Positions 31,901 through 34,900 of a DNA stretch of 64,000 nucleotides are shown here, one piece after another. The translations under genes were made by a program, and so were the position numbers. The notes beneath the pieces were generated by a model, which was not told the origin of the DNA, ran no database searches, and was given only the letters and a program-made list of their open reading frames with translations. The stretch comes from Escherichia coli (GTDB taxonomy: Bacteria; Pseudomonadota; Gammaproteobacteria; Enterobacterales; Enterobacteriaceae). Each line of letters opens with the position of its first letter. Position 1 is the stretch's first letter. The DNA lies in NCBI RefSeq assembly GCF_024223415.1, contig NZ_CP100500.1. The stretch is one strand, 5' to 3'.

Positions 31901-34900
31901 TCATTCACCGTAATGTAGAGAGTGGTATCGTCGCCTGCCAATTGTGTGTCATAAAGTGTATATAGCGAGGTGAGATGTGCCGTAGACGCATCAGCGTCGA
32001 CTTGTATGGACGTGCTAAGCGTGGAGCTACCATTTTCCAGGCTAGCTTCAATGGTATCCGGTCTCGCTCCTGTTTCTCTCGAGGAACGGGTATTGGTATA
32101 AGTAACGGTAGCTTTACCCTGTTCGTTCGTCACGGCTTGGCCGCCGTTCGTCATTTCGGCAGATTTTGTTCTGCTGGTAAAGCTCACAGTCACACCTTTC
32201 ACCGGAAAGCCATTATTATCAACGACTGTGGCCGTGATGACGCTGCCGGTGCTGTTCTGCGGGGTACCGGCGATTATGCTGTCTGGGACAGGCGTCAACT
32301 CGATAATTTTTGCCGCCGCTGTGTCGCCAATAAAATGCACAGTTTTGTTGTCGCTGGCACCATTATTAGCCAGTGATGCAGTGACCGTCTGCTCACCAAA
32401 GGCAACGCCTGCGAGAGTGGCCTGCGCGATGCCAGACTCATTGGTATTACTCACTCCCGGGGTCAGGGTGAGTCCTGAAGAGGCTGAGCTGAATGTTACC
32501 GGAAGATTGTTCACCTCATTGTCGAACTGATCTTTAACCGTTGCAGTTAGCGTTGCGTTATCGACGCCATTACCTGTGATCTCATCTTTTGACATCTGCA
32601 GGACAACCTGAGCCGAGGTTTTGTCCGCCACAAACGTTACCGGCTGCGAATCACTGGTATTGTTATTACTCAGCGTTGCGGTAACCGTATGCGTACCCGC
32701 TTTTTTACCTTTGAGCATGACATGCGCTTCCCTATTGGCCTGGGTGATGGCAATGCCGTTATTTTCGAGGGTAAAGTTTGCCGCCACGCCCTGTGGCATG
32801 GTGAAGTTCACCGCTATTCCCGCCACCGGATGATTCGACGGATCTTTCACCGTCGCCGTCAGCTGCACGCTGTCGCTGTTATTCGTCACCACCTGTTGAG
32901 CAGGGATGTTCAGCGTGACCTGCGCGTTGCTGGCATCGGGCGCAATATTGACTGTCGTCGTATAGCCATTGCCGTTAAGCAGCGTGGCTTCGACTGTATG
33001 AACACCCAAAACCGTGCCTTTCAGGGTAACTTCAGCAACACCACTGTCGTTAGTATTGCTTGTGCTCTGACTAAGTTGAGTATCTGCCGGGTTGGTACTG
33101 AAGGTGACCGGTAGCTCTTTTACTACGTTATCAAAAGGATCTTTTACTGTTGCTGTCAGCGTCGTCTCATCCACGCCATTCCCAATGATTTCCGCTTTCG
33201 ATGTTTGCAGAACGACAACCGCGTTGTCCTTATCCGCCACGAATGTGACTGGTTGCGCATCGCTGGCATTATTGTTACCCAGCGTTGCGGTAACCGTATG
33301 CGTGCCCGCTTTTTTACCTTTGAGCGTGACATGCGCTTCCCCATTGGCCTGGGTAATGGCAATGCCGTTATTTTCAAGGGTAAAGTTTGCTGCCACGTCC
33401 TGTGGCATGGTGAAGTTCACCGTTATTCCCGCCACAGGATGATTCGACGGATCTTTCACCGTTGCCGTCAGCTGCACGCTGTCGCTGTTATTCGTCACCA
33501 CCTGTTGAGCAGGGATGTTCAGCGTGACCTGCGCGTTGCTGGCATCGGGCGCAATATTGACTGTCGTCGTATAGCCATTGCCGTTAAGCAGCGTGGCTTC
33601 GACTGTATGAACACCCAAAACCGTGCCTTTCAGGGTAACTTCAGCAACACCACTGTCGTTAGTATTGCTTGTGCTCTGACTAAGTTGAGTATCTGCCGGG
33701 TTGGTACTGAAGGTGACCGGTAAATCTTTTACTACGTTATCAAAAGGATCTTTCACTGTTGCTGTCAGCGTCGTCTCATCCACGCCATTCCCAATGATTT
33801 CCGCTTTCGATGTTTGCATAACGACAACTGCGCTGTCCTTATCCGCCACGAATGTGACTGGTTGCGCATCGCTGGCATTATTGTTACCCAGCGTTGCGGT
33901 AACCGTATGCGTGCCCGCTTTTTTGCCTTTGAGGGTGACATGCGCTTCCCCATTGGCCTGAGTGATGGCAATACCGTTATTTTCGAGGGTAAAGTTTGCC
34001 GCAACGTCCTGTGGCATGGTGAAGTTCACCGTTATTCCCGCCACAGGATGATTCGACGGATCTTTCACCGTTGCCGTCAGCTGCACGCTGTCGCTGTTAT
34101 TCGTCACCACCTGTTGAGCAGGGATGTTCAGGGTGACCTGCGCGTTGCTGGTATCGGGCGCAATATTGACTATCTTCGTATCGTTGTTGCCGTTAGGCAG
34201 TGTGGCTTCGGCTGTATGAACACCCAAAACCGTGCCCTTAAGGGTAACTTCAGCAATACCGTTCTCATTAGTATTACGCGCGTTCAGGCTCAGTTGTGTG
34301 TCTGCGGGGGAGGTGCTGAAGGCTACTGACAGATTTTTAACCACGTTATCAAAAGGATCTTTCACTGTTGCTGTCAGCGTCGTCTCATCCACGCCATTCC
34401 CAATGATTTCCGCTTTCGATGTTTGCAGAACGACAACCGCTCTGTCTTTATCCGCCACAAACGCCATTGGCTGAGCATCGCTGACATTGCTGTTAGCCAG
34501 ACGAGCCGTGATCATATGCGTGCCCGCTAACGTGCCGGTCAGGGAGGCGATGGCAATCCCGTTGCTATCCGTCATGCCTTTTCCGCTGTTGCTAATCGAG
34601 AACTGACTTGCGACGTCGTTTGGCACAGAGAAAGTGATTTCTTTATCTTTTAGTGGGTTGCCATTTTTATCCTGCAAGGTTGCCGTCAGCTGTTGAGGCG
34701 CTGTGTCGGTGACGGTGATCTCGCCTGAGGGCACACGGAGGGTCAGGGCAGCAGTACTTTGATCACCGATAAAATTCACCTGTTGATTAGCCTGGGAACC
34801 AGAGCTCACAGAGGCCGTAACCGTATAATCACCATTTTTCAAACTGGTCAGCGTGGCTGTGGCGATCCCGTCGTGGCTATTCACTTCGGTTTGGCTCAGT

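Follow-up and report, generated by a model that had tools for sequence, protein, structure and literature searches.

A rare three-unit allele of the 609-bp tandem repeat array in the Escherichia coli adhesin gene yeeJ

Results

The yeeJ locus

The sequence analysed here, referred to throughout as the window, is a 64,000-nt stretch of E. coli DNA (RefSeq assembly GCF_024223415.1, contig NZ_CP100500.1). The yeeJ coding sequence lies at 28972..37563 on the minus strand (8592 nt, 2863 aa). Its start was placed at the ATG at 37563 by comparison with RefSeq, where alleles differing from that of the window by 4 nt are annotated from this codon; among them is WP_250998442.1 of strain G1/2, with 4 differences over 8592 nt. 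The longest possible ORF, 28972..37638, opens with a TTG at 37638 and would encode 2888 aa, and a first-pass annotation of the sequence had put the length at about 2860–2890 aa.

The gene is yeeJ and encodes an inverse autotransporter (type Ve) adhesin. The product is 95.9% identical in amino-acid sequence to YeeJ of K-12 over 2358 aligned residues, and the order of neighbours, shiA, a GT9 glycosyltransferase gene, yeeJ, tRNA-Asn, mtfA and tRNA-Ser, matches that of MG1655, so that high identity and shared chromosomal position together identify the two genes as orthologues. In Pfam, an IAT_beta domain (PF11924) spans aa 143–418 (E = 1e-112) and is followed by Invasin_D3/Big_1 repeats, which is the arrangement of an inverse autotransporter, an N-terminal IAT beta-barrel with a C-terminal passenger. 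Matches of the window protein to Intimin_C (19.2 bits against a cutoff of 27, E = 0.0017) and Invasin_D4 (22.7 bits, cutoff 27) are weak. YeeJ has been reported to carry a periplasmic LysM domain and a C-terminal C-type lectin-like domain, assigned by means of Prosite and modelling (PMC5595812); the Pfam LysM family is absent from the matches of the window protein at E <= 0.01.

The adjoining GT9 gene (27597–28712, plus strand) is an intact ORF in the window. RefSeq annotates its K-12 MG1655 counterpart as a pseudogene, interrupted by an internal stop, and that of strain G1/2 as an incomplete pseudogene, missing its N-terminus and situated beside an IS1 element. The usual E. coli asn tRNA cluster surrounds yeeJ, with four genes for tRNA-Asn(gtt) and a single tRNA-Ser(cga) gene (18660–18735, 21069–21144, 22893–22968, 37876–37951 and 38943–39032); integrase or prophage remnants adjoin the tRNA-Ser gene in several related genomes. 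At some distance from yeeJ, positions 5754–10113 form a 4.36-kb segment that ES5, the closest complete genome, lacks. Encoded there are two neighbouring DUF7828/zinc-ribbon ORFs (6016–6423 and 6324–6821), ISL3-family transposase fragments (7105–8483) and a phosphotriesterase-family ORF on the minus strand (9135–10169).

Three in-frame units of paired Ig-like domains

Within yeeJ, positions 32635..34461 (minus strand) form an array of three tandem, in-frame units of 609 bp (203 aa), each composed of an A and a B domain of the Big_1 type. In the direction of the gene, these are unit 1 (U1; 33853..34461, aa 1035–1237), unit 2 (U2; 33244..33852, aa 1238–1440) and unit 3 (U3; 32635..33243, aa 1441–1643), all on the minus strand. 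By position, U1 matches the first and U3 the last unit of other alleles, while U2 is a recombinant middle unit, as described below. The array is bordered upstream in the gene by a diverged B-like Ig domain (34462..34773, minus strand, aa 931–1034) that resembles the end of a unit only in its final ~70 nt, and downstream by a diverged A-like Ig domain (32335..32634, minus strand, aa 1644–1743) that is ~64% identical to the A domains in a 300-nt window.

The periodicity was apparent in a scan of yeeJ over all in-frame lags. The best 300-nt window reached 99% identity at lag 609, the corresponding value for lag 1218 being 94%, and lags that are not multiples of 609 gave 58% or less, which is the ordinary similarity of paralogous Ig domains; in 20 shuffles of yeeJ, lag identity did not exceed 38%. 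A repeat search returned three copies with spacings of 609 and 609 nt. Tandem Repeats Finder produced no output because the longest period it considers is 500, and its blank result is uninformative on a 609-nt period. Each unit contains two Pfam Big_1 domains (E-values 1e-20 and 4e-21), and the sole solved-structure match for the unit is intimin 6tpl (E = 1.5e-6). The lag scan, the three in-frame units and the Big_1 pairs thus bear out the 609-bp period and the roughly three copies of a 203-aa, two-Ig-domain unit described in the first-pass annotation, whose limits for the repeats, 32560–34500, fall within about 75 nt of the array.

The same annotation had called the copies near-identical, and this is accurate for part of the array. 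Nucleotide identity is 95.7% between U2 and U3, 91.1% between U1 and U2, and 88.8% between U1 and U3. The A halves of U2 and U3 are 98.0% identical and the B halves of U1 and U2 96.7%, and the longest exact run common to units is 259 nt. The description therefore fits U2 with U3 and parts of U1 with U2, and is overstated for U1 with U3.

Two other features of the array were considered and set aside. Plus-strand ORFs at 33205–33723 and 33814–34329 (171–172 aa) are antisense to yeeJ and lie 609 nt apart; they represent one antisense frame that recurs with each unit and can almost certainly be dismissed as genes. A programmed element, such as a phase-variation cassette or a mobile insertion, does not fit either, the units being in frame and encoding Ig domains only, with no associated recombinase or inverted repeats.

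Repeats this similar can be expanded spuriously during assembly, and the true allele might then have two units. The exact 259-nt run in adjacent units exceeds the length of many short reads, and many 'partial' database entries for YeeJ, of 1010–1035 aa, stop near the start of the array (aa 1035), which may reflect contig breaks. An artefact is nonetheless very unlikely, because the same three-unit array, with 2 nt different, is found in five independently assembled complete genomes: G1/2, G6/7 and G8, all isolated in a single German study, ES5, from a Chinese frog farm, and the poultry strain MB50. Three units were seen directly, in single collinear matches, in at least 28 complete genomes. 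Furthermore, the three units of the window can be told apart, differing at 26–68 sites, and the orderly chimeric make-up of the middle unit is what a genuine crossover would produce.

Four array lengths among complete genomes

Copy number among strains, a comparison suggested in the first-pass annotation, takes four values in complete E. coli genomes, with arrays of 312, 609, 1218 and 1827 nt. The shortest, found in K-12, consists of one hybrid Ig domain in a gene of 7077 bp (2358 aa). One-unit arrays of 609 nt occur in genes of 7374 or 7398 bp (2457 or 2465 aa), as in AR_0077 and LCP22S3_I2. The 1218-nt array has two units (UMN026/O157 type) in a gene of 7983 bp (2660 aa), as in O157:H7, 0H23 and DG351-2. 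Three units, or 1827 nt, are found in genes of 8592–8616 bp (8592, 8613 or 8616 bp) encoding 2863–2871 aa, with examples in the window, G1/2, ES5, GF60, N3, PCN033, 1190 and VCSW7; NCTC9038 also has three units, in a frameshifted gene of 8591 bp.

To estimate class frequencies we searched 5426 complete E. coli genomes, of which 2914–2915 contain this part of yeeJ. Coverage of the repeat itself does not distinguish alleles of two and three units, as the matching pieces are joined, and it was replaced with synthetic queries made up of the two unique flanks only. Genomes were counted at 80% coverage or more, and flank matches were joined only if they lay no further apart than half the query length plus 500 nt, so that steps in the count mark array sizes. 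At a joining threshold of 700 nt, 1615 genomes were counted, all of the K-12 type. Raising the threshold to 800 nt gave 1654 genomes (about 39 one-unit alleles added), 1500 nt gave 2767 (about 1113 two-unit alleles added) and 1900 nt gave 2804 (at most 37 three-unit alleles added), all of these being approximate figures from an indirect coverage method that is blurred by IS insertions and flank divergence. Taken with the direct matches, this puts the three-unit allele at 28–37 of about 2915, or about 1% of yeeJ-positive genomes.

At a threshold of 2500 nt, 52 more genomes were joined, for a count of 2856. None of the matches sampled at this threshold had the 6436-nt span expected of a four-unit allele, and all sampled matches longer than the three-unit expectation overlapped an annotated IS element. 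Four-unit alleles are thus likely to be absent among the complete genomes. A homologue search with the N-terminal 600 aa returned only proteins of up to about 1050 aa, longer members of the family seemingly being absent from the database, and yielded no length distribution.

The gene is often inactivated in other strains. Insertions of IS3, IS2, IS26 or IS1203 and truncations are annotated within or beside yeeJ, and disrupted examples include O145 RM9154-C1 and O157:H7 F3113, in addition to the frameshift in NCTC9038.

The K-12 allele is joined at an 11-nt microhomology

The K-12 protein lacks 505 aa relative to that of the window; the alignment has one gap of 302 aa and another of 203 aa, and the array contains both. 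The first-pass annotation had given the K-12 length of about 2358 aa correctly, and had named an equal repeat count in K-12 as a refuting result; the entire excess over K-12 instead falls in the array. The two gaps correspond to a published 906-bp fragment (see Discussion) plus one more 609-bp unit.

Compared with the two-unit type, the K-12 allele has a 906-bp in-frame deletion joined at an exact microhomology of 11 nt, GTGAAAGATCC, which is part of an imperfect 23-nt match encoding LTATVKDP. In the window, the left copy of this sequence is found in domain A of unit 1 (34355..34365, minus strand) and the right copy in domain B of unit 3 (32840..32850, minus strand). The resulting 104-aa domain of K-12 matches the unit 1 A domain over its first ~107 nt and the final B domain over its last ~205 nt. 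Pfam recognises it as a full-length Big_1 domain (E = 7e-22, profile positions 2–93 of 93), since the A and B folds are joined at corresponding positions. A deletion, distinct from the exchange of whole units treated below, would thus have brought the beginning of an A domain together with the end of a B domain, and a single hybrid Ig domain remains intact in their place. Given what is established about repeat recombination in E. coli, slippage or short-homology recombination may have produced it.

Chimeric units point to unequal crossover

Units at the same position in different alleles correspond, with 95–100% identity among first units and 94–98% among last units. We typed the middle unit of three-unit alleles at sites where the first and last units of the same allele differ. 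All seven of the three-unit alleles analysed (7/7) have a middle unit that agrees with the last unit at its 5′ end and with the first at its 3′ end. The cleanest switch is that of NCTC9038, in which 35 consecutive last-type sites are followed by 28 consecutive first-type sites. In the window, U2 is U3-like at most sites through unit position 310, with a few sites at 20–99 matching U1; it is then U1-like at 330–455, mixed at about 459–528, and U1-like again at every site from 537 to 609. One-unit alleles, which occur in two gene backgrounds, have the reciprocal pattern, with first-type sequence at the 5′ end and last-type sequence at the 3′ end.

This arrangement is what misaligned homologous recombination would leave behind. 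If two two-unit arrays, for instance on sister chromosomes, were to pair out of register, the long identical DNA between units (up to 259 nt) could serve as substrate for an unequal crossover, and whole units would be added or removed with the reading frame kept, since the units share such long identical stretches. One product would consist of U1, a hybrid with the 5′ part of the last unit and the 3′ part of the first, and the last unit, as in the window allele, which would then have arisen from a two-unit allele of the UMN026/O157 type; the reciprocal product would be a one-unit allele. From the chimeric units and from what is already understood of repeat recombination in E. coli, we infer this pathway and the direction of each event, as well as the RecA dependence of unit gain and loss. 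As an overall explanation of the window array, an unequal crossover between two-unit alleles is very probable. Recombination-driven length variation, raised in the first-pass annotation as something the repeats would allow, accordingly finds support in the four in-frame array sizes and the reciprocal chimeric units.

The switch points are not the same in all alleles. They lie at about 24–42 in N3, 205–251 in NCTC9038 and GF60 (205–240 for the clean switch in NCTC9038), 310–330 in the window and 537–579 in strain 1190. Alleles that share a downstream gene background (3663 nt versus 3684/3687 nt) also differ in unit number, in each of the backgrounds seen. Differing switch points together with variation within backgrounds indicate more than one event. 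The mosaic stretches in some middle units show that gene conversion or later mutation acted as well, and differing breakpoints therefore need not each mark a separate crossover. In addition, strains could exchange alleles and so carry unit numbers from one background to another.

An alternative account of the three-unit alleles and their apparent breakpoints is that a single old duplication was followed by gene conversion and horizontal exchange of alleles, in place of recurrent unequal crossovers. Mosaic first-type and last-type patterns are seen in several middle units (window, PCN033 and VCSW7), E. coli alleles do recombine between strains, and three-unit alleles are rare enough that few events are needed. 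We nevertheless consider a single duplication unlikely: the clean single-switch chimeras of NCTC9038, N3 and strain 1190 break at different places, reciprocal one-unit products exist in two gene backgrounds, and first and last units have kept their positional identity across alleles.

Another alternative is rapid switching of unit number within a strain, akin to phase variation and known from some Gram-positive Periscope Proteins. The repeat number of Rib changes within 24 h in mice (PMC8201768), and identical runs of 259 nt would be ample for RecA-mediated recombination. Against this, array size in about 2915 genomes ranges only from 0.5 to 3 units, with no four-unit allele in the samples, and the units have diverged by 4–11%. 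Groups of genomes whose matches have near-identical statistics are, moreover, uniformly three-unit, both among the G1/2, G6/7 and G8 isolates and among several O166:H15 strains. Switching at such a rate is very improbable for yeeJ.

Discussion

Length polymorphism of YeeJ is already published, both for the gene itself and for a named class of proteins to which it belongs. Martinez-Gil et al. (2017, Sci Rep 7:11326; PMC5595812) described two functional yeeJ variants, from MG1655 and UMN026. A 906-bp fragment, 'made up of a repeated section', distinguishes them and accounts for three additional Big domains; the authors found no functional difference between the two length variants in biofilm assays. 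Our analysis concerns the same gene, locus and variable segment, 906 bp being the difference between the 312-nt and 1218-nt arrays. In contrast to those variants, the window has one more 609-bp unit (8592 bp, 2863 aa) and represents a third length class that is undescribed there, and a fourth, one-unit class (2457/2465 aa) exists too. Nor does that report describe how the units are built, the hybrid nature of the K-12 Ig domain or the crossover chimeras. The anatomy of the repeat, the classes of allele, the chimeric nature of units and the junction of the K-12 deletion are all read directly from the alleles compared here.

Periscope Proteins are surface proteins whose stalk length varies by recombination between highly similar tandem repeats (PMC8201768). 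Dataset S1 of Whelan et al. (2021, PNAS 118:e2101349118; PMC8201768) lists 'YeeJ' of E. coli as cluster 53, with 2–3 repeats and a DNA identity of 0.98, and inverse autotransporters are counted among Periscope Proteins in a review (PMC9704523). Our observations agree with this placement. YeeJ is a single-chain surface protein with tandem stalk domains, its 609-bp units are highly similar tandem repeats in one polypeptide (89–96% identical, with exact runs of up to 259 nt), and their number varies between strains, as the four array lengths attest. Two differences are apparent, however. The variation in YeeJ is small, 0.5–3 units of two domains, compared with up to 46 repeats in classic Periscope Proteins, and the repeating unit is a domain pair, whereas the repeat length given in the dataset of PMC8201768 is 119 aa.

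The overall architecture of YeeJ is that of the type Ve proteins intimin and invasin, with an N-terminal IAT_beta barrel, an Ig-like stalk and a C-terminal lectin-like tip. The stalk domains of intimin and invasin are few and dissimilar, and to our knowledge highly similar tandem units and polymorphism in unit number are not among their features. By analogy with these stalks, the repeat region of YeeJ may form an elongated rod that projects the distal domain. At an E-value threshold of 1e-10, Pfam identifies 12 Big_1 stretches in K-12 YeeJ, 13 in the one-unit form and 15 in the two-unit form, and by extension the window protein would have 17. Its stalk has two more Ig domains than that of the common long allele and five more than that of K-12. 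In the invasin rod, each domain contributes about 3.6 nm. If the same spacing applies to YeeJ, the C-terminal lectin-like domain would reach about 7 nm further in the window protein than in the two-unit form, and about 18 nm further than in K-12.

The additions made here to what was known are modest: four in-frame length classes in place of the two published, class frequencies across 5426 complete genomes, reciprocal crossover chimeras, and the recognition of the K-12 allele as a microhomology deletion that retains an intact hybrid Ig domain. The yeeJ array does not represent a new kind of biology, and the value of these findings lies mainly in annotation and assembly. As the length of yeeJ differs by whole 609-bp units, the K-12 protein (2358 aa) is unsuitable as a length reference, and short-read assemblies may break or miscount at the array.

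A more speculative possibility, which we regard as doubtful, is that active recombination makes the yeeJ array a length switch, with recurrent gain and loss of units in many lineages and selection on a stalk of 13, 14, 16 or 18 Ig domains. One element of this picture, a K-12 reference protein derived by deletion and carrying a hybrid Ig domain, is shown in the present analysis. For the rest, stalk length could serve to lift the lectin-like tip over different O-antigen or capsule layers, and three-unit alleles, rare as they are, would then be signs of a particular surface or niche.
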